Positions 3,001 through 29,118 of a stretch of 64,000 nt of DNA are shown here, one piece after another. Under the pieces are notes generated by a model. It was not told the DNA's origin, searched no databases, and was given only the letters and a program-made list of their open reading frames with translations. This DNA is from a bacterium (GTDB lineage Bacteria > Patescibacteriota > Minisyncoccia > JAHIHE01). Position 1 is the stretch's first letter, and every line of letters starts with the position of its first letter. Made by a program: the position numbers and the translations under genes. Location of the stretch: assembly GCA_030693205.1 (NCBI GenBank), contig JAUYBG010000006.1, positions 4,015 through 68,014 of the forward strand, given 5' to 3'.

Positions 3001-4957
3001 GGGAGGAGAGACAAGTGTAAAGCCGAGAGCGGGAAAAATATATGGCGGGAAAACCTGGTTTGAATATAGCGTGCCGTCAAGCAATCTCACCGATTTTACT
3101 CTTACTTCCGCTCCGATGTCCGCCTTGACTCCAAAAACTTACGCGAGCGCTTATGCTTTTGCTTATTTCTATAGTCCGGTGGCGCAGTCGGCGCAATTAC
3201 GTATTGGCAGCGATGATGGCGTAAAAGCTTTTGTAAACGGAGCGTGGGTTTACACAAATGCAACGCAACGAGGCGCTTCTCCTGATCAGGATACTAAAAA
3301 TATTAATCTTATCGCGGGAATCAATACTTTATTGATAAAAGTCCAGCAAGGAACGAGCGGCTGGGGTTTGTACGCGCGTATTACGGATGCGAGCGGCAAT
3401 GATATTTTAAATAATATTACCGCCTGGGACTCGGCAGCCGCGACAGGCGTAAGCAAGGATTATAATGTCTCTTCGATCGGTCCCGGGGGAACAAGCATTC
3501 CCACATCCAACATGGCAAGTTCCGCTCCGCTGAATTGCAATCCCTTAACGCCGGAGGTGACTTTAACGTCCGGATGCGATGGCGCTAATACGCAAATGAC
3601 TGTTTCTTGGCTTGCCGATTCGAATACTTATTATTGGAATATTTATAAGAAACGCAGCACAGACGTGAGCTTTATATTATTAAATCCTCCGGGAAGTATT
3701 GCCAGTTCTTCCTATGTGGATATGAATGTGGCAAGCAACGTCAGTTATGATTATTTTGTCAGGGCTTTTGGCAGCGGTGGAATAACCCGAACTTCGGATA
3801 TACAGACTGCGCTTGTTTTAACTTGCTATAACGCACCGATAAAACCGGTAATTGCAACTGCGCCGCAATGCGCCGGAATGACTTCGAGAATAAATATAAT
3901 ATGGTCGCCATACGATAATACCAAAACACTTTCATTCAATGTTCTTCGCAAAGATATTACAGCGGGCGAATCGGGTTACGCTAATATTTTTGAAAATCTA
4001 TCGCCGTCTTCCATAACAGAATATTCCGATGGCAGTGTTATCACCGGACATACCTATTCATATAGAATTGAAGCGGTTGGGTCAGGCGTGGATAATCATG
4101 CAATTTCGGACATAACTCCCGCCGGTGAAGGCGAGGCAATTGATTGCCTAAATACTCCTCCTTTTGATCCCCCGACACTGAATCTTAATTTTTCTGCCTA
4201 TACTGTTGTAACTGGCGGTTCGGTCTCATTAAGGTGGACAGATACTCAAAATGAAACTAAATATAAAGTTTTCAGAAGGATTAAGGGCGAGACGGAATTT
4301 GCTTATCAAAAACAAAATGGCTGGCTGGATTATTTAAAAAGTATTTTTGGAAAAATATCCAATGCGGCTTATGATAATCCTGTTGTAATAATGCTTGCGG
4401 GCGTAGATTATGTCGATCCTCCGATTTCCGGTCTCGTTAATTATATTGATAATACGGTTAGCGAAAATAGAACATATGAGTATCAAATTTTAGCCATAAA
4501 TAATGCGGGCGGCGGCGATGCGGGCATAACTTATTCAAACATTATTTCTCCTGTTTATGTTCCGATCGCGCCGCCTGTCGCTTCCGTGGTTTCTTCCGCC
4601 GTTTTTGGTCCGGGGAAAACCAGGATTCATTGGGTGCGGCCAAACCCGACGCTGGGTAATGAATATACGAATGCCGGAAAACCCCCGTTGTATGAAGTTC
4701 AAAGATCATCCACTCGAGATTTTATTGCCGGCACTTTTTCCGTTCTCGGTACAATATGTTCGGATATTATCAATAATGGTCCGGCGCGCGCATGCGGAAC
4801 AGAAGTTCTTGATGCCGAATTAGAATATATTGACAATAATGCTTCCGTGGCGGAAAAATATTATCGAGTTATAACCGAAAATTACGGCGGAAGAGCGGCG
4901 TCCACGTCTATCGTCGGTTATTCTAATTTGAAATGGAAAGAAGTGATACCGAGATAA
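2..4957 (+). CDS. Giant secreted/surface protein, 5' partial (the frame is open back to the window start). It has at least 12 FN3/Ig-like ~95-aa modules plus a LamG (concanavalin-A-like lectin) domain and a PA14 domain.
   Basis: The 1601-aa ORF continues upstream without a stop. Repeated modules carry a conserved C...NW...Y.IYRN...YYY..A.G pattern. A LamG-like segment is LTGDLTIEFWANP...VDEVRIYNRVLS. A PA14-like segment is GGFTYSHAGS...LRIGSDDGVKAFVNGAWVY. A hairpin terminator follows at 5016-5048. Confidence 0.75.
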   Translation: MTIIPPSPTPVLNNPSAYCESNKSKIALEWSPSDNAIYYTLYRNGAALINLSNTSYVDAGVESGISYNYFVRAYGKAGTSTSASDTKSITAVSCTPPVAPTLTLTKSCSVNMPQVNLSWSVTSAENIVNYEIKRGLAAGSLATKAIVDKSVYSKIDNDGINPSTAYYYQIIANSVIGVNPSFSSVKSITTDSCLPTTPAVTLSTYCESGNAKVKVSWTSDKANTDHFEIFRQDLNGGTIPIATVALGGTSYSWVDTNPTAQTTAYSYKVVAVGQLNTKTSTQGFKPITTYNCAIPSGFTLTNPPNIFCQGSYPRSGLNWSPSSNSTSYDLFRNRLNADDSVAETNTFINATSPYSDIGFGNALNFNGSSSVDFGLTSMPLTGDLTIEFWANPSSVSSPSRQNPICKSYGGEFCLTMEISGQLSYYHGSAGGNNSPYMSFNTPNVFENNKWVHVVITRNKATRTMKSYKNGSPASSGTWTSSYDPSVSTYNLFAGEGYVNNFKGLIDEVRIYNRVLSNTEALEHYGGIYSNESNLIGLWHFDEGSGQTVSNSFNNSNNGVLGASIAVDLEDPSWTSNGLQTGNKYNWQVRANGPGGVVLSNLTSSTVIPVCEPTKLGLEANTFCQGSVKSSVRLKWSYSINTDKYEIYRDSALIKTVYKADSEYLSRTWDDNNNGLGLNSGVSYSYYIKAVGPTGLTNQSNFRSVNALLCVPPDTISSLTATPSCSGSYPRVNLNWADIVNTDYYTVYRNGSPLTPNATISSFTDTTVAVNTYYTYQVTAYGPGGPSEPSNNAIIDPAVSLNNNYCTPSVPVITSVNGACTSGIPYNTVNWSDATTYNTQQYKIYRNTENNFSTATLTRTIDKSTEPALFNSRSWQNSGLLDDTVYYYWIKAIGPVGGLESAVSVVASRRTNICTLPSAPSISLSNICSSYNDPVTVLNWNKTANTTDYTIYKNTVLMKTINSNSNGYIKNWLIIGGFTYSHAGSTPTAAEINTALAADYLGGETSVKPRAGKIYGGKTWFEYSVPSSNLTDFTLTSAPMSALTPKTYASAYAFAYFYSPVAQSAQLRIGSDDGVKAFVNGAWVYTNATQRGASPDQDTKNINLIAGINTLLIKVQQGTSGWGLYARITDASGNDILNNITAWDSAAATGVSKDYNVSSIGPGGTSIPTSNMASSAPLNCNPLTPEVTLTSGCDGANTQMTVSWLADSNTYYWNIYKKRSTDVSFILLNPPGSIASSSYVDMNVASNVSYDYFVRAFGSGGITRTSDIQTALVLTCYNAPIKPVIATAPQCAGMTSRINIIWSPYDNTKTLSFNVLRKDITAGESGYANIFENLSPSSITEYSDGSVITGHTYSYRIEAVGSGVDNHAISDITPAGEGEAIDCLNTPPFDPPTLNLNFSAYTVVTGGSVSLRWTDTQNETKYKVFRRIKGETEFAYQKQNGWLDYLKSIFGKISNAAYDNPVVIMLAGVDYVDPPISGLVNYIDNTVSENRTYEYQILAINNAGGGDAGITYSNIISPVYVPIAPPVASVVSSAVFGPGKTRIHWVRPNPTLGNEYTNAGKPPLYEVQRSSTRDFIAGTFSVLGTICSDIINNGPARACGTEVLDAELEYIDNNASVAEKYYRVITENYGGRAASTSIVGYSNLKWKEVIPR

Positions 4958-10450: not shown

Positions 10451-11245
10451 TTAATTTAATAAAATAAAAACTTTTTCTATTTTTTTCATATCGGCTAATG
10501 GAGAAAGAATGACCTTTTGGAATGTTTTGTTCGGATATTTTTCAACTGAAACAATTTTTGCCAGTGGAAATGCGGCAATACTGCCGCTGACCGGCAAAGT
10601 AACCAAAATATCATCCGCGTTGACTTCGGCATCCTGCAAAACCATATCGAAATACAACCCGATATTTTGATCATTTTTTACCAAACCTTGAACCCGAGTA
10701 TTTTGATCGATCGCGCTAATAACGCTTCGCCTATCGGTAAACAAAAGAACCCCGGCGGTATTTGCCGAAACATTGATTATCCTGCCGATATAAAAACCGT
10801 TTTGATCGATTACCGCCATATCCTTGCCAATCCCCGCTTCACTGCCCAAATTTATCAGTAAATAATCTGAAAAATTATAAGGATCTTTTCCAATAATCGT
10901 ACCGTCAACAAAAGAATGCTCTTTAATTAAAGGGAGACTAAGAATATTTCTTAACGTTTTATTTTCATTATTTACTTCCTTCAGATCAGAAATTTGCTTA
11001 CGCAGCTTATTATTTTCATCCATTAACAGAACTTTATCGTCGTATGCATTTCTTATTTCAAAGATCAAACGCAAAGAATCTTTTACGGAAAAATTTATTT
11101 TTGAAATAATAATTTCGGGATAATAAAAAAAATAGGAAAGTTTATTTTTAAATGCCTCCAAATAATTTTTATTGTTTAAAAAAATAATTATCACAATAAA
11201 AAAAATAGCGGCAAAAAATTTGATATTACGTTTAATCGGCCTCAT
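10451..11245 (-). CDS. mreC: Rod shape-determining protein MreC.
   Basis: N-terminal TM helix, a coiled-coil (LKEVNNENKTLRNIL) and beta-rich C-terminal domains. It lies between mreB and mreD. Confidence 0.7.
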   Translation of the reverse strand: MRPIKRNIKFFAAIFFIVIIIFLNNKNYLEAFKNKLSYFFYYPEIIISKINFSVKDSLRLIFEIRNAYDDKVLLMDENNKLRKQISDLKEVNNENKTLRNILSLPLIKEHSFVDGTIIGKDPYNFSDYLLINLGSEAGIGKDMAVIDQNGFYIGRIINVSANTAGVLLFTDRRSVISAIDQNTRVQGLVKNDQNIGLYFDMVLQDAEVNADDILVTLPVSGSIAAFPLAKIVSVEKYPNKTFQKVILSPLADMKKIEKVFILLN

Positions 11246-11277
11246 TTTACATTATCTGTTAAAACAATGGCTTAATT

Positions 11278-12330
11278 CTACGTTGGCACTTTTTCATCTT
11301 CAATTGAAACCAGAACCTCTCGCAAAGTATCGATGTTTTCAATAATAATACCGGTTCCCCTTACAACTGCGGTTAGGGGATCGTCGGCTATCCGCACCGG
11401 CATCTGAATTTCCTGATTAATTAATTTATCAATGCCTCTTAAAAGGCTTCCTCCTCCGACCAGAATAATACCTTGCCCCATGATATCCGCCACCAGCTCC
11501 GGCGGGGTTTCTTCGATCGTATTTTTAATATTTGAAACGATTATTCGCACGGAACGATTGATCGCTTTTCTTATCTGCTCATCGCTCACAATAACTTCTT
11601 TTGGCAATCCGGTAACCAGATCGCGCCCCCTGATCGGAACCTTGATAGTTTCCCCAAGCGGCCAAGCGGAACCGGATAAAATTTTAATTTCTTCCGCGGT
11701 TTTTTCACCAACCAAAAGATTAAATTCGTCCCGCGCATATTGAACGATATCATCATTCATTTCATCTCCCGCTACCCTTAAACTCCTGGAGGTCACGATG
11801 CCGCCCAAAGAAATGACCGCAATCTCGGTAGTTCCGCCCCCCATATCAACGATCATATTTCCAATCGCCTCTTGTACGGGAAGCTTAACTCCGATCGCCG
11901 AAGCCATCGGCTCTTCAACTAAAAAAACTTCTTTGGCGCCCGCCGAAAGCGCTGCGTCTCGCACCGCTTTTTTTTCAACCTGAGTTACTCCGCAAGGAAT
12001 TCCAATTACGACCGTGGGACGCGAAATAAAAGAAAAAAATTTTTCTGACGCCTTGTCGATAAAATATTTCAACATTTGCTCCGTAACTTCGAAATCGGAA
12101 ATCACGCCATCTTTAAGAGGCCTGATCGCGGTAATATATCCGGGAGTCCGCCCGACCATTATTTTTGCCTCACTCCCGACAGCCAATACTTGATTGGTTT
12201 TTTTATTTATCGCGACAACCGATGGTTCATTGATAACAATTCCTTTGCCGCGGACATAAACCAAAGTATTGGCCGTACCCAAATCTATGCCAATATCTCG
12301 CGAAAAAAATTTAAAAAAATCTTTGAACAT
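11278..12330 (-). CDS. mreB: Actin-like rod shape-determining protein MreB.
   Basis: 350 aa. GIDLGTANTLVYV and the phosphate-1/2 and adenosine motifs of the MreB/actin ATPase fold are present. Confidence 0.9.
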   Translation of the reverse strand: MFKDFFKFFSRDIGIDLGTANTLVYVRGKGIVINEPSVVAINKKTNQVLAVGSEAKIMVGRTPGYITAIRPLKDGVISDFEVTEQMLKYFIDKASEKFFSFISRPTVVIGIPCGVTQVEKKAVRDAALSAGAKEVFLVEEPMASAIGVKLPVQEAIGNMIVDMGGGTTEIAVISLGGIVTSRSLRVAGDEMNDDIVQYARDEFNLLVGEKTAEEIKILSGSAWPLGETIKVPIRGRDLVTGLPKEVIVSDEQIRKAINRSVRIIVSNIKNTIEETPPELVADIMGQGIILVGGGSLLRGIDKLINQEIQMPVRIADDPLTAVVRGTGIIIENIDTLREVLVSIEDEKVPT

Positions 12331-12336
12331 ATCAGA

Positions 12337-12429
12337 ATGATTTATGAATTATGATTTAAGATTTATGAATTTAACGCTGATTTATTCTTAAATCATAAAT
12401 CGTATATCGTATATCGTATATCTTAAATC
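12337..12429. repeat. Heptamer-built palindromic element, copy 2. It fills the whole mreB-proS intergenic region and starts 7 nt upstream of the mreB ATG.
   Basis: The 34-bp arm atgatttatgaattatgatttaagatttatgaat is identical to the copy at 36621. The right arm ttaaatcataaatcgtatat x3 is partly its reverse complement. Confidence 0.75.
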
Positions 12430-12441
12430 TTTGCCTAAATA

Positions 12442-13683
12442 TCATTTATCTATCAATTTGACTGCTTCTTCCAAACTCATTAATTTCACTTCTTCTCTGC
12501 CTCTTTCTTTTACTTCAATCTTACCCTTATTTCTCTCGCTTACCACCAATCTAAGCGGAATTCCAATGAGATCGCTGTCTTTAAATTTCATTCCCGCCGA
12601 TAAATTTCGGTCATCAAATAATACCTCAATATCGGCTTTTTGTAAAGACGCGTAAATATTTTCCGCTTCTTTCTTTGCGTTTTTATCATCCGGGTTGATC
12701 AGGATAAGATGCACGCGGAAAGGCGCAATGCTAGAGGGCCAGATAATGCCATTTTTGTCATTGCATACTTCAACCACCGTTCCCATCAAGCGATCAAGTC
12801 CAATGCCATAGCAACCCATAATAACAGTCTTTTCTTTTCCATCCTGATCTTTAAAACGCAAATTGAACGGCGCGCTATATTTCGTGTTCAGCTTAAAAAT
12901 ATTTCCCACCTCGATCGCTTTTTTAATTTCAAATTCCTCGCTTTGGCATTCCGGACAAACCGGGTTTATGTCAGCCAATATTTCTTTGTTGATCGACAAG
13001 TGGCATTTTTTGCAGATATAAATAACATCTTCCCCGGCTTCCGTAATTGTCTGAAATTCATGCGAGTATTTCGAAAAAGTTCCGCCGCTTGCCAAGGTCA
13101 AATAAGTTTTTCCCTTAATTCCGACTCTCTCAAAAATTTTCCAATATGTATCTTTTATTTTTTCATAAAATTCATTCAAATCTTTTTCATCCGCGTGAAA
13201 TGAATACATATCCTTCATCAAAAACTGCCGGCCCCGCAAAATTCCGCTCTTTGCCCGTTTTTCATTGCGAAACTTGGCCTGAATCTGATAAACCGACACA
13301 GGCAGATCTTTGTAAGAAGAAATGGACTTTCCAAGCAAGGGCACAACCACTTCTTCATGAGTGGCTCCGAGAGCGTATTCTTTGCTGTCATCGCCCTTAA
13401 GCTTAAACAAAACATCCAGCTCGTCCCAGCGGCCGGTTATCTGCCAATTCGCTTTTGGCTGAAGCGCCGGCATCAAGATCTCCTGCCCGCCTACCGCGTT
13501 CATTTCCTCGCGAATTATATTTCCAATCTTATTTATAACTCGAAGCCCCAGAGGCAAGTGCATATATATGCCGGCGGCCAGCTTGTCAATAAAACCCGCT
13601 CTCGTCAAAAGCCGCGCGTTCAGGCTTTTTTCCTCGGCTGAAATATTTTTAGTTGTTTTGGTAAATAATTGTGATTGGCGCAT
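12442..13683 (-). CDS. proS: Prolyl-tRNA synthetase, bacterial type, short form lacking the INS editing domain and carrying a Zn-ribbon insert.
   Basis: The N-terminus aligns with bacterial ProRS (QLFTKT...RAGFI.KLAAGIY..LPLGLRV..K...IIREEM). The class II core and the anticodon-binding C-terminus are present. It is 413 aa, against about 570 aa for typical bacterial ProRS. Confidence 0.8.
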   Translation of the reverse strand: MRQSQLFTKTTKNISAEEKSLNARLLTRAGFIDKLAAGIYMHLPLGLRVINKIGNIIREEMNAVGGQEILMPALQPKANWQITGRWDELDVLFKLKGDDSKEYALGATHEEVVVPLLGKSISSYKDLPVSVYQIQAKFRNEKRAKSGILRGRQFLMKDMYSFHADEKDLNEFYEKIKDTYWKIFERVGIKGKTYLTLASGGTFSKYSHEFQTITEAGEDVIYICKKCHLSINKEILADINPVCPECQSEEFEIKKAIEVGNIFKLNTKYSAPFNLRFKDQDGKEKTVIMGCYGIGLDRLMGTVVEVCNDKNGIIWPSSIAPFRVHLILINPDDKNAKKEAENIYASLQKADIEVLFDDRNLSAGMKFKDSDLIGIPLRLVVSERNKGKIEVKERGREEVKLMSLEEAVKLIDK

Positions 13684-19327: not shown

Positions 19328-19618
19328 TCAGATTCTATTTCCGCCGCCAATTCCGCCAAAACTCCTTCCGGTGTCGACGCAATCGGTTTCGCGCATTTTT
19401 CCATCAGAAGCAATCAATTTCAACTGTCGACAAATTGTCGATGGTTCAAATCCATCTTCTTCTTTAACTCTAATTTTCATTTTAAACCAATAATCATTTG
19501 GATCTACGCTGTCAGTCAATGCCTGAACAACATCTATGACCGAAAACCACCATTCATTATTATAGATTATTTTTCTAATTTTCTTACCTTTAAACAAAGC
19601 AATTTTTACAGTTTCCAT
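19328..19618 (-). pseudogene. BRO-N (phage antirepressor / DinD-like) N-terminal domain fragment. Its 3' end runs through the island's left direct repeat.
   Basis: The BRO-N signature is KIRKIIYNNEWWFSVIDVVQAL. It is only 96 aa, against about 250 aa for typical BRO/DinD proteins. An alternative frame over the repeat reads TPEGVLAEL, paralleling the C-terminus of the ORF at 29115. Confidence 0.55.
19348..19377. repeat. Left copy of the 25-bp perfect (29/30) direct repeat bounding the accessory island.
   Basis: caattccgccaaaactccttccggtGtcg at 19348-19377 versus caattccgccaaaactccttccggtAtcg at 29145-29174. Confidence 0.8.
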
Positions 19619-19635
19619 AATATTTATCTTATCCC

Positions 19636-19703
19636 TTGATTAAATCTTTGGAAAATTTTGCGGCGGGATTTTTAATATGAATTGATTTTTAGGATTTTTT
19701 GAA
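19636..19703. repeat. 68-bp direct repeat, copy A (its mate is at 20531-20598, about 88% identical). It lies upstream of the BRO-N start.
   Basis: ttgattaaatctttggaaaattttgcggcgggatttttaatatgaattgatttttaggattttttgaat versus the copy at 20531. Confidence 0.7.
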
Positions 19704-19729
19704 TTTCGAGAACAGTTCTCGGCAGGATT

Positions 19730-20447
19730 TCATTTTAAAAGCTGAGTTACTAGCGCCACCATCTGATCTTTTTCTTTCGGCTTGCTTTCGGCGATAAGAA
19801 TCGCCAAGGCCGTTAAAGCGTTGTCGTTGATTTTTCTTTCTCCGTTTTCCCGATACAAATAATCGTTTTTATCCAAAAAATAAACAAACATAAAAGAGCC
19901 GATGCGCTTGTTGCCATCGGAAAACGGATGGTCTTTCACGGTTAAATACAAAAGATGCGCCGCTTTTTCTTCGGTGCTGAAAATCAATCGCGCTCTGTAA
20001 TTCTTTGAATTTGCTTTTAGCTTCCAAAAGTCGTTTTTCATTTACAGCATAACCCTTAATCAAATAATCTTTAACTATCTTAGTCGCCCAAATTCTGAAT
20101 TGAGTAGCTCTTTCCGAATTTATGCGATAACCGACGGAAATAATTGCATCAAGATTATAAAACTGGGTTTTATAGATTTTTCCATCGGCGGCAGTATGTT
20201 CCAAAATGGAACTAACTGAATTTTTATTTAGCTCGGCAGTTTTAAAGATATTGCGGAGATGCTTGGTAATTGCCGGCCTTTGCGTGCCAAAAAGCAAAGC
20301 AATTTGAGATTGCGTTAACCAAATAGTTTCATTATCAAGTTTTACTTCAATTTGAATATCGCCGCCTTTGGGCTTATAGATGACAATTCCGCCTCTGTTG
20401 AATTGTTCGAGTTTTTTCTTTTTTAGCATAGTTTTTATGACTCGCAT
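19730..20447 (-). pseudogene. RhuM-family N-terminal domain fused to a Doc/Fic-type toxin domain. The gene is interrupted by a frameshift (ORFs 19869-20447 and 19730-20041 overlap in different frames).
   Basis: The N-terminal part aligns with the full-length RhuM at 28057-29061 (WLTQ..IA.LF...R..I..HL.NI, VGYR..S...TQFR.WAT). The C-terminal ORF carries the Doc-type motif HPFSDGNKRIG. The two frames overlap by about 170 nt. Confidence 0.55.
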
Positions 20448-20530: not shown

Positions 20531-20598
20531 TTGATTAGATCTTTGGAAAATTTTGGGTCCGGATTTTCAATATGAATTGATTTTAAAGATTTTTTAAA
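20531..20598. repeat. 68-bp direct repeat, copy B (mate of 19636-19703). It lies upstream of the RhuM/Doc gene.
   Basis: See copy A. Confidence 0.7.
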
Positions 20599-20660
20599 TC
20601 TTGTAAGCAATTCTCAAAAATATTAAAAAGCGCTTAGTGCCTCATTTCCACTTTATATTA

Positions 20661-23600
20661 TTAAGAAATAATTTTTATAATATCCTTAGTAACTAATTTT
20701 CTATCACGCTTTTCACTAATCCAATCGCTATATTTAACTCTGTAAAATACCCACCCTGCAGCTTCAAGTACACGCTGGCGTTCTTCGTCGCTTTCAATAT
20801 GAATACCGTACGCCTCGTCTATTTCGTCTTTGAAATGAGAAGGGCCATCGCACTCAACCGCAATACGCTTACCCGTATTTGTATTACTCACAACAAAATC
20901 AATCTTGAAACCGCAACTTTCAACTTGATTCTGAATTTTATAGCCGCGTTTTAGATTTGCACGCATAAGATTGAAAAATTCTTCCTCAAAATATGAATCA
21001 AATGGCTTGAGATCGGTTGAATAAAACGCAACTTCTCCATTTTCTTGCACATACTCAAGATATTTCTTGAGCCAGATTTTTTCTGGCATTTCTTGCGTAG
21101 ACAAACTAACGAAACAATGCACCTGTAATCTTGCGCGCGAAAAAGCGACATTAACTCTGCCTTTGTTTATATCGGCGCGTATATCTCCGCCCTCACCAGT
21201 TAGCGGAACATATTTGTTTTTTTGTTCAGGCGTCCTAATAACAAATGAATAAATTACAATATCTTTCTCGTCGCCTTGAATGCCCTCAATAATACTCACC
21301 TTGTAATTGTCGTCTTCTTCCTTAAAACCTTCCTTCTCAAAGAGATTGCGAATATAAGTCGCTTGAGCATTAAAGAAAGATAAAATGCCGATAGATTTAT
21401 CGCGATAGCGTTCGTCATCCCGCAACTCTTTGAATAGGTTTAATATCGCCTTTGCTTCAGCGATATTTACATTATCTGAAAATTCCTCGCTCCAATCTGA
21501 TTTTATTTCATGAACAAGCATTATGCGGTTTGTGTCTTTGTAGGTTAGATAATTACTATTGATTGAAATTAATTCTTTACCTTTAGGTTTATAAAAATAT
21601 TTATTACTAAAGCCAATCAATTCTACCGCAGAACGATAATGGTAATGTAAGGGTTTTTCCATAAAACCACGATTTTTTGCAATATCTAAAACGGACTGAA
21701 CGGCATCGCCTGTCGCTTTGATTTGTTTATCTACTGGTATTTTATATGTATGCGCGAGTTGATCAAAAAACTTATTTGATTTAAACATTATCGTACTATC
21801 GCGCATTTGCTCGCTATCGCCAACAAATAAAACTCTATTTGTGCGATACATAACCGGTAAAGTGTAAGCAACGTTGCATTGCGATGCTTCGTCTAAAATT
21901 ACGTAGTCAAAAATTCCGGCTTCAAGCGGAATAATACGGCTTGCGTCATCAAGTTCCATAATCCAAACGGGAATTAAATCCAAAATTGCATTAAAATTAT
22001 TTACATCTTTTCGGAGATTATCAAACGTCTTAAACGCTTTTTTTGATTTTCCGAAAGCTTTTGCTAACTTGTTAACTATTTGCCTAATTGTTATCCCTTC
22101 TTTCCATTTTTTAAGAATTCCTTCATTGATAATATTCTGGATATAAAGTCCAACGCGCTTAACCCGTTCCTGTTCGGTGTGCTTTAACGCAGAACCTATT
22201 TTATTAATACTGTCTGTTTTTGCCAATTTCTGTAATTCCGATTTAATTTCCTGTGTTCGTAAGATTTTATTTTTAATTTCTTCTAAATTGGCAATTGCGG
22301 TGTTGTCAATTTTTCTATCTAAAATTTCAAACTCATCATCAGAAACTCCGCAAGTACTCAATTTTTGTCGCAATTTTTCCTCGGCATTTTCCAAACATTG
22401 AATATTTTCATAGTAACAACAATGATTATAAAGACAATCGAGCGTTTTTGCTTGTTCATTCCGCGACATACTACTTATCAAAATTTTATCTATGTAATCG
22501 ATAATTTCTCGTGGCAATTTTTTTCGAACATTACCAAGCCGAAAATTGCGACTAACATTGTTAATCTTGCGAAAAAAGTTTGAATGTCGATCGTATCCAG
22601 TTTTCGCAACATCATCTCTTAATTTCCCTATGGCCTCGGCAAAATGTTCGCCATTTAGATTAAGGACAGAAAGAAGATGGTCAAGTTCTTTTTTTTCGTC
22701 GCTTCGCTCATATTTTCTGATAATTTTGCCGATTGTTTCTATCTCTGCTTTTGCATTTTTAATTTCTCGCCATTCGTCAGATGAAAAACTTCTTGCAAAA
22801 CATCCAAAATCAGAAATATCTATATCGTATTCTTTAAGTTGTAATAACTCTTGATGAAGTTGGTATATTTTTCTTTGAATAGTGATAATTTCATTAAGAG
22901 CTTCCCGATTTTTTTCTTTTTCCCCAACAATTTGATCAATTGCCGGAATTGATATGTTTTTTCCACTATATTCTACTAAATGCCTTCTTGCGTTAAATTT
23001 ATAACCAAGTTTTTCAATATGGGAACCGAGTGCACTTAATTGTGGCGCTATTCCATCTGCTTCGTCTTCTTCCCCAATTTGTGCTGAATTTGGATTGGGC
23101 AGATAGCCGAATAAATATTTTACATCAAGCTTTTTGAGTTTATCTTTTACAACTTTGAGAGCTTGCGCTTTTTGACTAACAAAAAGCACGCGATTGCCAG
23201 TAGCGGCAAGATGACAAAGTATATTTGAAATTGTTTCTGACTTACCGGTTCCAGGTGGCCCTTGAATAATCGCCCCTTTATTGCCAAGAATTGAAAGAGT
23301 GGAAAGTTGGTATTTGTCGTAGAGAAATGGAAAATATAAATCTTTTTCATGGGGAGTTTCACCCTCAACGTTTAACTCATCGTTTTGTGTCCAGCTCGTA
23401 AGTGCGGTTTTAGCAAGTTCTTCTTCTGTTAGCTGGGAGAGTTTGGCTAAATCTTCAGCAAGAAAATAATTCGCCTTTGGGCTTAAGGCAATTTTAATTT
23501 CTTCAAGCGAAAAAGATTTTTCATCAAAATTAGCGTTTTTAAGTCGTAATTGGGCTTTTATTTTGTGCCAAATTTCTTTAAAAATTAATAAATCAGTTAT

Positions 23601-24233
23601 GGGCAAAGAAAATTGCCCTTCAATTTCATATTTACCCATTTCTTCCAAAAGCTGAAAATATAAATCCTCGCCAAGTATTGGTTCCAACATTCCTATATTT
23701 ACTTGGACTTCTGGATCAACAAAATAAATAGAGTACTCTTTAGCGCCAGTTTTTTTGTTAAATTCTTGTTCTATTTTTACTGGCAATGAAAAAAGTGGAT
23801 AACGGTCAATTTTAGTTTTAACTGGTTTTTCTTCCACATTTTCCTCTTGTTCTTCTGATGAAATAATATCGCCATTGCTTTCAATGGGAATTTCAATTTC
23901 AAAATACCCAAAACTTAATATGATCTGCTTTGTGTATTGATCATTTTTATATTTGCTATAAATATCGTCTATTTTATTTGCCAGCTCTTTTTCCTTTTCG
24001 TACTCGTCCATTTCATCTTTGGGAACATCCTTTGGATCATATTTGTAAAAAGTTTTTAGATCAATCAATTCTGCGATTTTTTCATCCGTGTCTCCGTTCA
24101 ATAAACCAAGTAATCCAAAAAGTTCTGCTGGTAGAATAACAGAATATTTTTGCTGTGCCAATATCGTATGTGCTCGGGTTAATTTTATATAACCAAGACA
24201 ATACTTAATGAAATTTGAAAGGTTATTGTCCAT
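20661..24233 (-). CDS. SF1 (Upf1/DNA2-like, AAA_11/AAA_12) helicase with an N-terminal DUF4011-like region and a C-terminal DUF559-type PD-(D/E)xK endonuclease domain. Putative defence helicase-nuclease.
   Basis: LYFPF...IIQGPPGTGKSETISNI is a DUF4011-to-Walker-A junction. A long coiled-coil insert follows. Motif II is YVILDEASQ, and helicase C-terminal motifs are present. The last ~110 aa read KIDFVV...KRIAVECDGPSHF...AGW.FYR, the DUF559/Vsr-like nuclease signature. Confidence 0.75.
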   Translation of the reverse strand: MDNNLSNFIKYCLGYIKLTRAHTILAQQKYSVILPAELFGLLGLLNGDTDEKIAELIDLKTFYKYDPKDVPKDEMDEYEKEKELANKIDDIYSKYKNDQYTKQIILSFGYFEIEIPIESNGDIISSEEQEENVEEKPVKTKIDRYPLFSLPVKIEQEFNKKTGAKEYSIYFVDPEVQVNIGMLEPILGEDLYFQLLEEMGKYEIEGQFSLPITDLLIFKEIWHKIKAQLRLKNANFDEKSFSLEEIKIALSPKANYFLAEDLAKLSQLTEEELAKTALTSWTQNDELNVEGETPHEKDLYFPFLYDKYQLSTLSILGNKGAIIQGPPGTGKSETISNILCHLAATGNRVLFVSQKAQALKVVKDKLKKLDVKYLFGYLPNPNSAQIGEEDEADGIAPQLSALGSHIEKLGYKFNARRHLVEYSGKNISIPAIDQIVGEKEKNREALNEIITIQRKIYQLHQELLQLKEYDIDISDFGCFARSFSSDEWREIKNAKAEIETIGKIIRKYERSDEKKELDHLLSVLNLNGEHFAEAIGKLRDDVAKTGYDRHSNFFRKINNVSRNFRLGNVRKKLPREIIDYIDKILISSMSRNEQAKTLDCLYNHCCYYENIQCLENAEEKLRQKLSTCGVSDDEFEILDRKIDNTAIANLEEIKNKILRTQEIKSELQKLAKTDSINKIGSALKHTEQERVKRVGLYIQNIINEGILKKWKEGITIRQIVNKLAKAFGKSKKAFKTFDNLRKDVNNFNAILDLIPVWIMELDDASRIIPLEAGIFDYVILDEASQCNVAYTLPVMYRTNRVLFVGDSEQMRDSTIMFKSNKFFDQLAHTYKIPVDKQIKATGDAVQSVLDIAKNRGFMEKPLHYHYRSAVELIGFSNKYFYKPKGKELISINSNYLTYKDTNRIMLVHEIKSDWSEEFSDNVNIAEAKAILNLFKELRDDERYRDKSIGILSFFNAQATYIRNLFEKEGFKEEDDNYKVSIIEGIQGDEKDIVIYSFVIRTPEQKNKYVPLTGEGGDIRADINKGRVNVAFSRARLQVHCFVSLSTQEMPEKIWLKKYLEYVQENGEVAFYSTDLKPFDSYFEEEFFNLMRANLKRGYKIQNQVESCGFKIDFVVSNTNTGKRIAVECDGPSHFKDEIDEAYGIHIESDEERQRVLEAAGWVFYRVKYSDWISEKRDRKLVTKDIIKIIS

Positions 24234-24344
24234 AATATTACTTCTTTTTCCTTCTTAAGCTTTATTAATCGCAATCTTACCCCAATTTGGGCTTAAAATT
24301 AATGAAAAAACGGCTGAAGAGCAAAGTTACGGATTTTCTCGTAT

Positions 24345-24529
24345 TTTTCCACCAGCGCTTTAATTTTTTCTTTGGCTTGTTGTTGCGTAATTGTTTTCCT
24401 TAAACTAAACTTCTACATTATCTTACCCCAAAACCTCCATAAAATCAAATAAAAAAATCCGGCGAATTTAATATTTCACCGGCTTGTCTTTTGGCAAATA
24501 ATTCATTTCTTGCCTTTTTTCAAAATCTT
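24345..24529. repeat. ~185-bp direct repeat, copy 1 (about 98% identical to 27896-28082). It carries a TTGATT-N17-TAAGAT promoter pointing at the helicase gene, and it also encodes the C-terminus of the ATPase fragment.
   Basis: Alignment of 24345-24529 with 27896-28082 shows only about three mismatches. Confidence 0.85.
24410..24438 (-). promoter_or_regulatory. Sigma70-like promoter (TTGATT-17-TAAGAT) inside repeat copy 1, about 180 nt upstream of the helicase-nuclease ATG.
   Basis: Minus-strand read: TTGATTttatggaggttttggggTAAGAT. The same module sits upstream of the rhuM ATG (29090-29118), and with TATAAT upstream of murC. Confidence 0.5.
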
Positions 24530-24722
24530 GCCTTTGCACTACTTCGTTCATCTGTAAATATCTTTGGGCTGAAATTCTTTTTGTAGGACTATTTACCTGT
24601 TCAAGCTTTGACCCGAATCTGGTTTTACCAGCCCCGTTTGCACCAATAATTACCATATTTTTTTCAATTATTATAGTTTCTTGTTCGCTACTATTAGATT
24701 TTGGAATTTGAATATTTTTCAT
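24468..24722 (-). pseudogene. Truncated N-terminal fragment of an AAA_15/AAA_21-type ATPase (Walker A only).
   Basis: IIGANGAGKTRFGSKLEQ is a P-loop, followed by about 40 aa and then a stop. The last ~20 codons are read from the 185-bp repeat, in a different frame from the RhuM copy. A full ATPase would exceed 350 aa. Confidence 0.55.
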
Positions 24723-24867: not shown

Positions 24868-25626
24868 TTATTTTGACAGTTTAATTAAAATTTTAATAAT
24901 TTCTATAATATCGTGGTTATGCCTCTTAGAACACATGGCAAAAATTTTCATTATGTCAAACAACACATCCGCATTATTTTTGTTTATTATATATTCTAGT
25001 ATATCACTATTTTTCGAAGAATGTCCTATCAAACCGGAATAATTGCTAAATGATTTAATTGGTATGCAAAAATATACCATCGGTTGAACACCCGTTGCAT
25101 ATTGTTGTTTTTGTATAGATACCTCTACTTGCGTATTGTCGGCCGTTTGAATCATAAAAAGAGTTGGCAGTTTTATACTTGTTTCTTCAAAATTCATTCC
25201 ATTAAGAACTATTTTTGAGTTATGTTCAATTGCAATTTTTTTGTCATCTATAAAATCATTATATTTTTTAATTTCCTCCAATAACTTAGTAATTTTTTCA
25301 ATTGATACCAAGCCAACTTGTATTCCATCATAAATAAGTTCGGAAAGTTCATAAAGATATTTTGTTTTGCCGTTAGCGCCGATAAAAGTTAATCGTTTTA
25401 ACCTTGTGTCTTTTTTGCCATTCACAACATCATTTACAACAGCATCGTAGCCGATTTGCCATTCAAGATATACACTCTCGTCAAAATTTCTTGTTCTAGC
25501 GGCAAAAGTATCGCCAAACTGCAAATTATTCTTTCTCGTCTTAAATCTAAATTTTCCAGAATTTGATGCGGGAATTTTTATAATTATTTCCTTATTTTTT
25601 GTAATATAATCCATATATATTTTCAA
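24868..25626 (-). CDS. Hypothetical 252-aa protein (ORF-A). A candidate restriction endonuclease or effector partner of the adjacent methyltransferases.
   Basis: No recognisable motif. It is co-directional with ORF-B with a 4-nt overlap, and divergent from the two MTase genes. Confidence 0.35.
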   Translation of the reverse strand: MKIYMDYITKNKEIIIKIPASNSGKFRFKTRKNNLQFGDTFAARTRNFDESVYLEWQIGYDAVVNDVVNGKKDTRLKRLTFIGANGKTKYLYELSELIYDGIQVGLVSIEKITKLLEEIKKYNDFIDDKKIAIEHNSKIVLNGMNFEETSIKLPTLFMIQTADNTQVEVSIQKQQYATGVQPMVYFCIPIKSFSNYSGLIGHSSKNSDILEYIINKNNADVLFDIMKIFAMCSKRHNHDIIEIIKILIKLSK

Positions 25627-26112: not shown

Positions 26113-26751
26113 ATGCAAAGTAATATTTTAAATACAATTCAAAACATTGATTGTTTGGAGGGATTTAAAATAATTCCCGACAGCTCAATTGATCTTATTT
26201 TAACAGACCCGCCCTATGGATTAAATAAAACTGGGATAAAAAATGACCACGACCTAAGTTTATTTTATTTGTCTTTGCCAGAAAGCCATAGAGTATTAAA
26301 AAATGATTCTTTTTATATCACTTTTTTTAGCACAAAATTTTTACCGGATATTTTCAAAAATAATCCTTTTCGGTATTTTTGGAATTTCATTTTATACTGT
26401 CCGAACGGAAGTGTAATGTCACCTATTGGTTTTACTAAATATATGTCCTGCGTTGTTTTTAAAAAAGGTAATCCTAAGTTGATCAAAAGAGGTAAAGATA
26501 TTTTTCTAGACACACCGGGCAGAATGATTGAACCAGATGAAGGATTCATAAACCACCCTACGCCAAAACCCAAAACATTCATAAAAGAATTACTAATGCT
26601 TTTTTCAAAAGAAAATGACATTATCCTTGATCCGTTTATTGGAAGCGGAAGTACGGCAGTCGCTTGTAAACAATTGAAAAGAAATTATATAGGTTTTGAA
26701 ATTAGCAATGATTATTGCAACTTAGCAAACGAGAGATTAAAAAAATTTTGA
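26113..26751 (+). CDS. DNA N6-adenine / N4-cytosine methyltransferase, beta-class (motif IV precedes motif I).
   Basis: DLILTDPPYG (motif IV, DPPY) appears near the N-terminus. LDPFIGSGSTAVAC (motif I, FxGxG) appears near the C-terminus. 212 aa. Confidence 0.8.
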   Translation: MQSNILNTIQNIDCLEGFKIIPDSSIDLILTDPPYGLNKTGIKNDHDLSLFYLSLPESHRVLKNDSFYITFFSTKFLPDIFKNNPFRYFWNFILYCPNGSVMSPIGFTKYMSCVVFKKGNPKLIKRGKDIFLDTPGRMIEPDEGFINHPTPKPKTFIKELLMLFSKENDIILDPFIGSGSTAVACKQLKRNYIGFEISNDYCNLANERLKKF

Positions 26752-26752
26752 T

Positions 26753-27883
26753 ATGAATAATAAACAAGAAATTTTAGGCCAATATTTTACCAAAATTGAA
26801 ATTGTCAGAAATTTGGTAGATTTAGTTTTATCAAACAAACATTATAAAAATAGCATTAAAATACTTGAACCTTCTTTCGGAACCGGAAATTTTATCAAAG
26901 CACTAAAAGAGAAGAATCTTTCCAATATTGAAGGCTGTGAAATTGACGAAGAGTTAACCAAAAATCCGTCAGATTTTTTTAATATGCCTTTTGAGAAAAA
27001 ATACGACTTAATCATCGGCAATCCGCCTTTTAGTAAATATAATTTAAAAGAAAGCTACTTTAATATAAACAAACATCTTAAATTTAACGCATTAGCTTCT
27101 GTTTATTTAACAAAAAATGAGCTAAGAAAAGATAAAGAAAAAATTGAGAACATTTTTTTGCTCAAAAGCTTAAAACATTTACAAGATAATAATTCATCTA
27201 TTGGTTTTGTCTTACCCATCTCATTTTTTATAAAAAATAGAAATAAATCCATAAAAAATGAATTATTAAAATATTTTTCTACCATTATCATTTATCAAAA
27301 CGATAAGGTTTGGTTCGATAAAAATATTCCCTGTTGTTTTGCTGTTTTTACCAATTCCGACAAACTAAAAAATAAAATTGTTTTAATATATGAAAATGGT
27401 AAAAAAAATAAAGAAGTATTTAGCATAAATAATATCCATGAAGAATTAATTCCCCAAGTTGTTTATCATAAAAACAATGGGTATATAAAAAATGACATAG
27501 GAACGCCTTTGTCGGAATTTTTTGAAACAAAAAAGATAAATATAAAAAAATCATACGAGGAAAATAATATTTCGGCAAAAAATATTCTTGAAAAAAATAT
27601 AATTCCAGAAAATAAACTCACTGAAAATTATAAAATTGCTGTCGTGAGAGTCGGAAATTCCAGTGTCGGAAAGTGTGGTTTGATAAACGAAAAAGAAGAT
27701 ATTTTAAATGATATGTTTTATATCTTTGATGTAAAAAATCAATATATTAAAAATAAACAAATAAAAGAAAATATCTGTCGTCAAATAAATAAAAATATTG
27801 ATTATTTTAGAAATATAACTTGCCGAGTTGGGAGTAAATCAATTAAAAAAGAGGATATTTATAATTTTAAAGTTAGCATTTAA
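26753..27883 (+). CDS. DNA N6-adenine methyltransferase, gamma-class (TaqI-like) with a C-terminal target-recognition region.
   Basis: QYFT near the N-terminus, ILEPSFGTGNF (motif I) and IIGNPPF (motif IV, NPPF) in gamma order. It starts 2 nt after the upstream MTase stop. Confidence 0.75.
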   Translation: MNNKQEILGQYFTKIEIVRNLVDLVLSNKHYKNSIKILEPSFGTGNFIKALKEKNLSNIEGCEIDEELTKNPSDFFNMPFEKKYDLIIGNPPFSKYNLKESYFNINKHLKFNALASVYLTKNELRKDKEKIENIFLLKSLKHLQDNNSSIGFVLPISFFIKNRNKSIKNELLKYFSTIIIYQNDKVWFDKNIPCCFAVFTNSDKLKNKIVLIYENGKKNKEVFSINNIHEELIPQVVYHKNNGYIKNDIGTPLSEFFETKKINIKKSYEENNISAKNILEKNIIPENKLTENYKIAVVRVGNSSVGKCGLINEKEDILNDMFYIFDVKNQYIKNKQIKENICRQINKNIDYFRNITCRVGSKSIKKEDIYNFKVSI

Positions 27884-27895
27884 AGCAACAATGCC

Positions 27896-28082
27896 CTTTT
27901 TCCACCAGCGCTTTAATTTTTTCTTTGGCTTGTTCTTGCATAATTGTTTTCCTTAAACTAAACTTCTACATTATCTTACCCCAAAACCTCCATAAAATCA
28001 AATAAAAAAAATCCGGCGAATTTAATATTTCACCGGCTTGTCTTTTGGCAAATAATTCATTTCTTGCCTTTTTTCAAAATCT
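27896..28082. repeat. ~185-bp direct repeat, copy 2. It overlaps the last 8 codons and 3' flank of rhuM, and contains a promoter module plus the start of a short ORF (MQEQAKEKIKALVEK...).
   Basis: See copy 1. Confidence 0.85.
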
Positions 28083-29061
28083 TTTTCACTTCCCTGTCAA
28101 AATCGGAAATATAATTTTTATCCCGCTCTTGACGATATTTTTCATATTCTTGCAAAGCTTTATCTTCCGCCTGTTTCGCGCTCACTGTGCCAGCCGAATG
28201 CAATAACTTTTTCTCTGAAATAGTCAAAAATTCATCCAATTTTGTAATCCAATCCCGCATTTTCATCAATCGACCAGAAGCGGCCTGCAATTCCGCAAAA
28301 TCAATATAGAGCGAAACGATCAGATTTAATTGATTTATTTCCGATTCGGTCAAATAATTTTTCGCAACGACAATATCGTCAGTGGTAATATAATTTCTTT
28401 TAAAACTTGTAAGCCCCATCAAAGGTTTTTTACTATCGACTCGCTGAGTGATAATTTCTGCTGCCGTATGTCCATGCACGGCAAAATGCATTTTATTTTG
28501 CACGGTAGCGAAAAATTTTTGCGTCAATTCGGCATCAATCTTATAATCGATGCTTGTCGCATAAATATCAGTCACTTTCTGATAAAACATCCGCTCACTA
28601 CTACGAATATCCCGCACGCGCTGCAATAACTCTTGAAAATAACGCGCCCTGCCACCTGCCTGTTTGAGCCGTTCGTCATCTATTGTAAAACCCTTAATTA
28701 AATATTCCCGCAATCTTTCTGTCGCCCATTGGCGAAACTGCGTTCCCTGTTCAGACCGTACACGATAGCCAACCGCCAAAATAACATCAAGATTATAATG
28801 TTTAACATCACGCGCAACTTCTCGCAAAGCTTCTTTCTGAACTATCCGGAAATTCCGGATAGTTGAATTTTCATCCAGTTCTCGTTCTAAATAAATATTT
28901 GCTAAATGTTCATTAACAGTGCGTATATCGACATTAAAAAGTTCCGCAATTAGTTTTTGCGTCAACCAAACATTTTCATCTTCAATTCTAACGCGAATTT
29001 TTTGCTCATCGCCAAAGGTTTGATAAATAACAATTTGCGGTTTTTTAATTTCCTTTTTCAT
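28057..29061 (-). CDS. rhuM: RhuM-family (virulence protein RhuM / Fic-Doc-associated) protein, full length.
   Basis: 334 aa. The N-terminal half is a paralogue of the 19869-20447 ORF. The conserved VGYRV.S..GTQFR.WAT region is present. Confidence 0.7.
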   Translation of the reverse strand: MKKEIKKPQIVIYQTFGDEQKIRVRIEDENVWLTQKLIAELFNVDIRTVNEHLANIYLERELDENSTIRNFRIVQKEALREVARDVKHYNLDVILAVGYRVRSEQGTQFRQWATERLREYLIKGFTIDDERLKQAGGRARYFQELLQRVRDIRSSERMFYQKVTDIYATSIDYKIDAELTQKFFATVQNKMHFAVHGHTAAEIITQRVDSKKPLMGLTSFKRNYITTDDIVVAKNYLTESEINQLNLIVSLYIDFAELQAASGRLMKMRDWITKLDEFLTISEKKLLHSAGTVSAKQAEDKALQEYEKYRQERDKNYISDFDREVKKILKKGKK

Positions 29062-29089: not shown

Positions 29090-29118
29090 ATCTTACCCCA
29101 AAACTCGCTTAAAATCAA
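29090..29118 (-). promoter_or_regulatory. Sigma70-like promoter TTGATT-17-TAAGAT, about 29 nt upstream of the rhuM ATG.
   Basis: Minus-strand read: TTGATTttaagcgagttttggggTAAGATtagatagagtttagtttaagaaaattttATG. Confidence 0.55.

Follow-up and report, generated by a model that had tools for sequence, protein, structure and literature searches.

The stretch analysed here, referred to as the window, comprises 64,000 nucleotides (nt) of contig JAUYBG010000006.1 (assembly GCA_030693205.1; positions 4,015 to 68,014 of the forward strand) from a bacterium of the Patescibacteriota; all nucleotide positions are those of the window unless a locus is named. At 20661..24233 its minus strand carries a complete gene, present in the list of open reading frames (ORFs), with an ATG start, a stop codon at 20661–20663 and a product of 1190 amino acids (aa), in which a helicase is followed by a C-terminal nuclease, as in the defence proteins Hhe, PDC-S37 and ProA. 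A protein identical to this product is held by NCBI as 'AAA domain-containing protein [bacterium]', encoded on a 138.6-kb contig of a metagenome-assembled genome (MAG). Since more than 120 full-length relatives, each of 1170–1200 aa, share 55–91% identity with the window protein, we judge the ORF to be a real, conserved gene and exclude a chance reading frame. The named homologues among the matches listed come from bins of the Patescibacteria or candidate phyla radiation (CPR), namely Buchanan-, Magasanik-, Gottesman-, Moranii- and Paceibacterota.

The protein begins with a family-specific domain (aa 1–310; 23304..24233, minus strand), followed by the first part of the first RecA-like helicase domain (RecA1), which includes motif Ia (aa 311–400; 23034..23303, minus strand; Pfam AAA_11/AAA_19/AAA_30). 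A variable insert within RecA1, delimited by a drop of conservation in the alignment (aa ~401–740; 22014..23033, minus strand), separates this from the second part of RecA1 and the second RecA-like domain, RecA2 (aa 741–1045; 21099..22013, minus strand; Pfam AAA_12). The Walker A motif GPPGTGKS lies at aa 325–332 (23238–23261, minus strand) and motif II, DEASQ, at aa 781–785 (21879–21893, minus strand); further helicase motifs are VGDSEQ (aa 804–809), GIQGDEKD (aa 984–991) and VNVAFSRAR (aa 1027–1035). Pfam AAA_11 matches aa 315–518 (6.9e-14) and AAA_12 aa 860–1038 (4.7e-22), which together with the motifs places the protein among the Upf1-like superfamily 1B (SF1B) helicases. The closest solved proteins found by a sequence search of the PDB are likewise Upf1-like SF1B helicases (Sen1, IGHMBP2 and Upf1/Nam7), the Upf1/Nam7 matches spanning aa 313–372.

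The C-terminal nuclease is of the Vsr/DUF559 type with a PD-(D/E)xK active site (aa 1072–1176; 20706..21020, minus strand), and 14 residues follow it. Two Pfam families score above their gathering thresholds, MTES_1575 (PF18741; Vsr-type restriction endonuclease) at aa 1082–1176 (2e-17; 63.5 bits against 38.2) and DUF559 (PF04480) at aa 1072–1172 (24.0 bits against 20.6). The domain shows a Vsr-like α/β fold with conserved acidic active-site residues, and its top fold matches, together with the Pfam families above threshold, are DNA endonucleases, namely DUF559, the homing endonuclease I-Bth0305I, Vsr and the MTES_1575 restriction endonuclease. Sequence identity to the Vsr/DUF559 endonucleases of known structure is 13–24% (E. 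coli Vsr, 1cw0; NGO0050, 3hrl; I-Bth0305I, 3r3p); these are small nucleases that stand alone or are intron-borne, whereas the window domain forms the C-terminal part of a helicase protein.

Conservation was assessed in an alignment of 30 homologues (57–87% identity), in which mean column identity is 64%. In Walker A, G325, P326, P327 and G328 are invariant, and K331 and S332 are kept in at least 90% of the homologues. The remaining motifs contain further invariant positions (D781/E782/S784/Q785, G805/D806/Q809, G984–D988 and R1026/R1033), as does the nuclease, where the candidate catalytic residues D1112, E1127, D1129 and H1133 are joined by R1152, Q1153, W1161 and R1165. These invariant nuclease residues are also found in the PDC-S37 family, except for H1133, which is shifted there by one position. 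Because the domain matches coincide with invariant motif and nuclease residues, both modules are confirmed and, judged from sequence, look catalytically competent. The first-pass annotation of this DNA had proposed just such a fusion of an Upf1-like SF1 helicase with a C-terminal DUF559/Vsr-type PD-(D/E)xK nuclease, and the Pfam families (AAA_11, AAA_12, MTES_1575, DUF559) bear it out; a failure to detect a nuclease fold at the C-terminus, which would have told against it, was not seen in either the Pfam or the fold search. The motifs that it quoted are all present in the translation: EKDLYFPFLYDKYQL at aa ~297–311, GPPGTGKS, DEASQ, and the C-terminal block GFKIDFVV...KRIAVECDGPSHF...GWVFYRVKYSDW at aa 1108–1171.

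Profile searches connect the protein with three defence families. The best PADLOC match is PDC-S37 (7.2e-75, 250.7 bits, aa 452–1178), and PADLOC Hhe (PDLC02194) also matches (3.8e-37, 125 bits, aa 739–1175); both of these profiles are without a cut-off. Among NCBIfam profiles the best match is ProA (NF058533; 1.2e-69, aa 444–1177), at 235.1 bits against a cut-off of 1500, and Hhe (NF042953) reaches 3.5e-49 over aa 748–1176, with 167.2 bits against a cut-off of 2000. The anticipated kinship with known defence proteins is thereby upheld. All these matches are partial, covering only the end of the insert, helicase domain 2 and the nuclease, so that the full-length equivalog score of 2000 bits for Hhe and that of 1500 bits for ProA are not reached. 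ProA is aligned over profile positions 995–1694 of 1903, about 550 N-terminal and about 200 C-terminal positions of the profile lying beyond the window protein. For PDC-S37 the best stretch is positions 640–1330 of a 1550-position profile; a true member, a protein of a Vibrio plasmid, scores 1952 bits over positions 1–1544, in contrast to the 251 bits of the window protein, which come from its C-terminal part.

With Hhe, the 'DUF4011 domain-containing anti-phage protein Hhe', the window protein shares a single polypeptide in which an AAA_11/AAA_12 helicase precedes an MTES_1575/Vsr-type nuclease, as well as a helicase whose motifs Ia and II are separated by a long insert, with similarity over aa 739–1176. 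The Hhe profiles have about 1800–1900 positions against 1190 aa here, the proteins have no kinship over the first ~140 residues and the insert, and neither the N-terminal DUF4011 (PF13195) of Hhe nor the DUF3320/winged helix-turn-helix (wHTH) region that follows its nuclease is detected in the window protein. PDC-S37 has the order DUF4011–AAA_11–AAA_12–MTES_1575–DUF3320 in about 1550–1600 aa (for example WP_065871658, from a Vibrio parahaemolyticus plasmid). It agrees with the window protein in domain order, and a profile–profile comparison with hhalign aligns aa 751–1174 at a probability of 100% (E 6.8e-48, 33% identity); pairwise identity between the two is 28%. It differs in carrying the N-terminal half of DUF4011, with its ELLD..RN.LL motif, and a DUF3320 tail of ~220 aa, both of which the window family lacks. 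On these comparisons the window protein is best placed in a separate, shorter family, outside Hhe, PDC-S37 and ProA.

The proposal that a helicase followed by DUF559 is an undescribed arrangement had been reached by comparison with Nhi, Mokosh type II and Hna only. That premise fails because Hhe, PDC-S37 and ProA all have the helicase-then-MTES_1575 order and the architecture has been known since 2013; with that description, and with validation of the Hhe-type architecture as defence reportedly achieved in 2020, it is not a new category. What is new is the compact variant with its private N-terminal domain. The 2013 description is of an SF1 helicase with a Vsr-type restriction endonuclease (MTES_1575) and a wHTH domain (DUF3320) (PMC3710099). 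One preprint cites Hhe as a system validated by experiment, in which a single gene encodes both the helicase and the Vsr nuclease; activity is reported against lambda, T3, T7 and PhiV-1, and the nuclease-site mutation E1731A reportedly abolishes it (bioRxiv 10.1101/2022.06.16.496414). Another describes the mapping of phage genes by which Hhe is triggered or countered (bioRxiv 10.1101/2024.10.10.617714). In the library of papers searched, none was found on PDC-S37 or ProA.

The N-terminal domain is α/β in character, with long β-hairpins, and ends in the invariant motif P-x-E-x-x-L-x-F-P-F-x-Y-D. It had been described as DUF4011-like, a reading that we do not retain: Pfam DUF4011 gives no match even at E≤1. 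The Pfam search returns AAA_11, AAA_12 and DUF559 as anticipated, but neither DUF4011 nor DUF3320 (PF11784). PF13195 is found in 0 of the 120 listed homologues compared with 118 of the 120 listed PDC-S37 relatives, and PF11784 in 0 of the same homologues compared with nearly all of those relatives. When Walker A is included, hhalign places aa 143–369 collinear with PDC-S37 positions 148–363 (probability 99.3%); when the N-terminal 310 aa without the helicase are compared with the PDC-S37 N-terminus, the alignment is not significant (E 0.13), although it covers the hairpin 'PLFSLPVKIE...YSIYFVD' (aa 142–184) in the same register as with Walker A included. Profile–profile comparison of aa 1–142 with the PDC-S37 family gave no match. 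A profile of aa 1–312 run against 1.84 billion cluster representatives retrieved 69 proteins only, in all of which the domain stands at the N-terminus of a protein of 1150–1450 aa or of a fragment of such a protein. Because aa 1–142 are unmatched and all 69 matches lie in family-type proteins, the domain is private to the window family, and descent from the DUF4011 region would apply to its second half at most.

Conservation is at its lowest in the insert (~340 aa, between motifs Ia and II), and hhalign finds nothing between it and the PDC-S37 insert (E 0.47). The segment had been taken for a long coiled coil; a variable insert of this size is indeed present, but no sustained heptad signal emerged from a crude Fourier test. 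It is poor in proline and glycine (5.3% together) and probably helical. By its sequence, then, the window protein is most simply described as a compact, CPR-centred relative of Hhe, PDC-S37 and ProA that has an N-terminal domain of its own and lacks the wHTH tail.

A further relative of this kind is WP_242760565, a 1576-aa 'AAA domain-containing protein' encoded directly after brxL in a BREX-1 operon on plasmid pACI of Acinetobacter sp. LUNF3 (NZ_CP093969.1; locus L061:4233-8963). It too combines a helicase with MTES_1575 and lacks DUF4011 and DUF3320, it shares with the window protein the YPL..P..E hairpin as well as the ELYFP..Y.K.Q motif that precedes Walker A, and it is 27–30% identical to the window protein over aa 137–366 and 754–1189. 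It differs in some 250 additional N-terminal residues and a longer insert, has no counterpart of window aa 1–136 and is not found by the N-terminal-domain profile; it may be an uncharacterised BREX accessory. Many Acinetobacter plasmids carry close matches to the C-terminal part of the query. The likeness to Mokosh (MkoA/MkoC), Nhi and Hna lies in their Upf1-like/COG1112 helicase cores, and the effector domains or domain orders of these systems are other than those of the window protein. The MkoA and MkoC profiles match the helicase part alone (aa 322–1046; 75–88 bits, 1e-22 to 1e-25), and none of the PADLOC profiles for Nhi or Hna matches at E≤1.

The distribution of the family was examined by a scan combining peptide patterns with tblastn, in one genome per species across 185,579 species. 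At least 53 loci were found, at 39–87% identity to the window protein, all in MAGs and mostly in Patescibacteria; with no more than two peptide patterns in the scan, this number is a minimum. The remaining bins are assigned to Omnitrophota, Nitrospirae/Thermodesulfovibrionales, TM6/Babeliales, Chlamydiia, Planctomycetales, Ignavibacteriae, Firestonebacteria, Verrucomicrobia, Bdellovibrionales and Gammaproteobacteria. The grouping of 50 of the helicases in a neighbour-joining tree is incongruent with taxonomy, which suggests horizontal transfer, with the proviso that bin labels can be wrong. One copy from Omnitrophota is almost identical to a copy from Uhrbacteria (L018 and L019), and a copy from Bdellovibrionales pairs in the tree with one from Moraniibacteriota (L015 and L044); such sister copies reflect either recent transfer between phyla or mis-binning. 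No family member was found among the viral contigs of IMG/VR, and 50,697 phage records (INPHARED) yielded two weak partial matches only; a phage origin was rejected on these results.

All-against-all clustering of the ORFs neighbouring the gene at 60 loci revealed no universal partner, in keeping with the single-gene character that had been proposed. At ~46 non-redundant loci, the 145 proteins encoded by the two nearest genes on each side represent 124 Pfam families, ranging from enolase, RecA and EF-Tu to MazF, OLD/AriA, SoFic, Cas4-like nucleases and integrases. The family thus lies in variable contexts, with neighbours that differ between almost all of the genomes, and not, as would have spoken against the first-pass proposal, uniformly in core ones, and for the family as a whole a defence neighbourhood is a qualitative result. 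Large serine recombinases (Resolvase, Recombinase and Zn ribbon; 495–546 aa) occur in the fetched flank (up to 6–10 kb) of 12 non-redundant loci, and tyrosine integrases in that of two more. Those positioned include L001:5401-7023, L005:14258-15898, L007:6147-7634, L010:111-1646, L015:858-2402, L020:7049-8593, L025:1123-2622, L038:4079-5716, L056:131-1633, and L057:3211-4788 and 11062-12642. Integrative elements are suggested as carriers by the presence of such genes within a few kb at about one locus in four.

At 10 of the ~48 non-redundant loci, a gene for a Cas4-like PDDEXK_1 or a DUF2779(+RNase_H_2) protein lies directly 3′ of the helicase-nuclease gene, co-directional and with a gap of 1–86 nt (L001:13602-15068, L005:11546-12379, L007:11900-12679, L013:3371-4858, L014:9527-11074, L020:3996-5471, L023:9589-11076, L037:9928-10884, L057:9522-10421 and L058:3754-7320). 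These loci occur throughout the helicase tree, on its deepest branch as well as among close relatives of the window copy, and the two genes may represent an ancestral cassette; the partner is absent from the window.

The window copy lies in a segment of ~10.7 kb (~18.8–29.5 kb) between two genes for GT4 glycosyltransferases, with core genes around it (holB, frr, rseP, a class II aminoacyl-tRNA synthetase gene and mreB). The GC content of the segment is 32.6%, against 38.4–38.7% in the flanks. Its type II restriction–modification (RM) genes comprise a PabI-type restriction enzyme gene (24868–25626, minus strand; RE_R_Pab1 6.6e-23, PADLOC REase_II) and two adjacent type II methyltransferase (MTase_II) genes (26113–26751 and 26753–27883, plus strand). 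An intact RhuM gene follows at 28057–29061 (PADLOC PDC-S05). Directly 3′ of the helicase gene is a frameshifted RhuM-Fic gene (19730–20447, minus strand; PDC-S23), with a Bro-N fragment nearby (19328–19618, minus strand; PDC-S13), and at 24468–24722 (minus strand) lies an 84-aa N-terminal fragment of an AriA/PtuA-like ATPase. With three decayed genes of defence type (RhuM-Fic, Bro-N and the ATPase stub), the island is in turnover. As a variable region with known defence genes, the segment is a defence island in the operational sense, so that the context first proposed for the gene is sustained by the RM system, the PDC-S05, PDC-S23 and PDC-S13 genes, the AriA/PtuA fragment and the drop in GC. 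A sister strain lacking the island was sought through exact matches of the flanking MreB and HolB, which returned the same genome only.

Taking these observations together, we favour, with moderate confidence, the view that the gene product is a stand-alone helicase-nuclease of the Hhe/PDC-S37/ProA kind, most likely serving as a single-gene defence against phages or mobile DNA in a Patescibacteria (CPR) host. This view is held because motor and nuclease are intact and the module of helicase domain 2 and nuclease is homologous to three defence families, and because the distribution is accessory and horizontally moving, the neighbourhoods are of defence and mobile character, and the family is absent from phages. 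The family-specific N-terminal domain and the variable RecA1 insert would serve as the sensing or regulatory parts; the Upf1-like SF1B motor would load on foreign or aberrant nucleic acid and translocate along it, driven by ATP, in the 5′→3′ direction (a polarity taken from the superfamily), and the nucleic acid so tracked would be cut by the C-terminal Vsr/DUF559-type PD-(D/E)xK domain. The anti-phage role, a DNA (not RNA) substrate, the polarity and the sparing of self are what we infer.

Several observations weigh against this view. About half of the neighbouring genes at other loci are ordinary housekeeping genes (enolase, RecA, EF-Tu, FtsH). The scores lie far under the cut-offs for Hhe and ProA, and function is therefore transferred across families and not within one. 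The nuclease fold also resembles RNA-binding RAP domains and Upf1-like helicases often act on RNA, so that either DNA or RNA may be the substrate. In addition, the preprint on Hhe triggers suggests a link of Hhe to NAD+/adenine metabolism (bioRxiv 10.1101/2024.10.10.617714).

The recombinases and integrases in the flanks, together with a helicase tree that conflicts with taxonomy and an identity of 65–80% between copies in bins of different phyla, could also mean that the protein belongs to an integrative mobile element, as its cargo or as a factor in its maintenance, acting in replication, recombination, competitor exclusion or addiction and not in host protection. The low-GC island of the window copy, full of repeats and pseudogenes, and a nuclease fold common to the homing endonuclease I-Bth0305I fit such a role. 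However, three quarters of the loci have no recombinase in the fetched flank, no integrase, recombinase or tRNA boundary was seen in the window island, and no replication-initiator or transfer genes recur beside the gene; we regard this role as unlikely. Since defence genes are typical element cargo, it overlaps with a defence function and does not exclude it. A housekeeping enzyme of repair or recombination, resembling Dna2 or AddAB and acting on DNA ends or flaps, possibly with the neighbouring Cas4/RecB-like protein, seems to us quite unlikely. An SF1B helicase with a PD-(D/E)xK nuclease is, as general knowledge has it, the recipe of Dna2 too, the downstream PDDEXK_1 or DUF2779(+RNase_H_2) genes described above would supply the partner, some loci are near recA/recX or a gene for a dinB-type polymerase, and the protein is very highly conserved (the mean column identity of 64%). 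Yet the gene is rare and patchy (at least 53 loci in 185,579 species genomes) and has no conserved chromosomal position; its window copy sits among RM and RhuM genes in a low-GC island, outside any repair operon, and its nearest characterised relatives are defence proteins.

The substrate could instead be RNA, with a Upf1/Sen1-like RNA helicase and a RAP-like endoribonuclease degrading phage transcripts or R-loops. The best solved relatives of the motor (Sen1, Upf1/Nam7 and IGHMBP2) are RNA or RNA/DNA helicases, and Pfam RAP scores 23.3 bits on the window protein, slightly under its cut-off of 24.2; against this, the top fold matches and the Pfam families above threshold are those of DNA endonucleases (DUF559, I-Bth0305I, Vsr and the MTES_1575 restriction endonuclease), the D...ExD acidic residues typical of metal-dependent DNA cleavage are invariant, and the literature treats the validated relative Hhe as a DNA nuclease system. 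RNA targeting therefore appears very unlikely.

A defence function in the host, the reading that we prefer, also admits a more far-reaching version, possible though doubtful, in which the ~1190-aa proteins would be a defence family in its own right, at home mainly in uncultured bacteria that are ultra-small or host-dependent (Patescibacteria, TM6/Babeliales, Omnitrophota, Chlamydiia and others). The private N-terminal domain would then be a new infection sensor, the family would descend from a pair of genes in which a Cas4-like/DUF2779 PD-(D/E)xK nuclease accompanies the helicase-nuclease, a system of one helicase and dual nucleases mechanistically unlike Hhe, and the window copy would be a 'solo' derivative.

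The genomes of CPR bacteria are tiny, and what is known of defence in them has been described mostly as RM systems. If the defence reading is true, a conserved, horizontally spreading Hhe-like helicase-nuclease would be a second widespread innate system in these organisms. The window family would be a naturally minimised form of Hhe/PDC-S37, with 1190 aa compared with 1550–1900 and no wHTH tail, and as a compact family it could be a more tractable model for infection sensing and nuclease control in the Hhe-like class.

Repeats lie upstream of and around the gene. The promoter-bearing repeat module that had been placed 180 nt upstream exists as a repeat at about that distance and contains a promoter-like box, but its promoter function is a prediction. 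The module is 186 nt long (24344–24529, minus strand) and is duplicated at 27897–28083, two parts of it being 98% and 88% identical between the copies. It combines the last 27 nt of a RhuM gene, a terminator-like hairpin with a T-run (24459–24482), a TTGATT-17-TAAGAT promoter-like box within a 43-nt unit (24412–24454), a ribosome-binding site and the opening codons of an ORF, MQEQAKEKIKALVEK.... In the copy that precedes the helicase gene this ORF start is dead, its start codon being mutated. The 43-nt promoter-like repeat recurs in diverged form (63%) 33–75 nt 5′ of the helicase ATG (24266..24308, minus strand).

The sequence TTGGGGTAAGAT has four exact copies in the window against 0.35 expected, all on the minus strand and all inside the island (24274–24285, 24420–24431, 27973–27984 and 29090–29101). 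Each copy is within a TTGATT-like/17-nt/TAAGAT box, and two of them are upstream of genes, those for the helicase (24274–24285, 41–52 nt 5′ of the ATG) and RhuM. The box agrees with the sigma-70 consensus at 8 of 12 positions and was missed by a promoter scan; these boxes may be a promoter cassette that is island-specific or mobile.

The 186-nt direct repeats bracket the RM block, which consists of the ATPase fragment, the R.Pab1-like restriction endonuclease gene, a 115-aa ORF and the two methyltransferase genes. Because the 84-aa ATPase fragment enters the repeat out of frame, it was probably truncated there by recombination. The PabI-family gene is divergent from the two methyltransferase genes; PabI enzymes are unusual restriction enzymes of the DNA-glycosylase type, and for this reason a PabI homologue in a CPR genome may deserve a look. 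At the start of the window lies a 1601-aa ORF (152–4957, plus strand). A second family of intergenic repeats (85 nt, 84% identity) has one copy just 3′ of the helicase gene (20531–20615) and the other just 3′ of the RhuM-Fic pseudogene (19636–19720).

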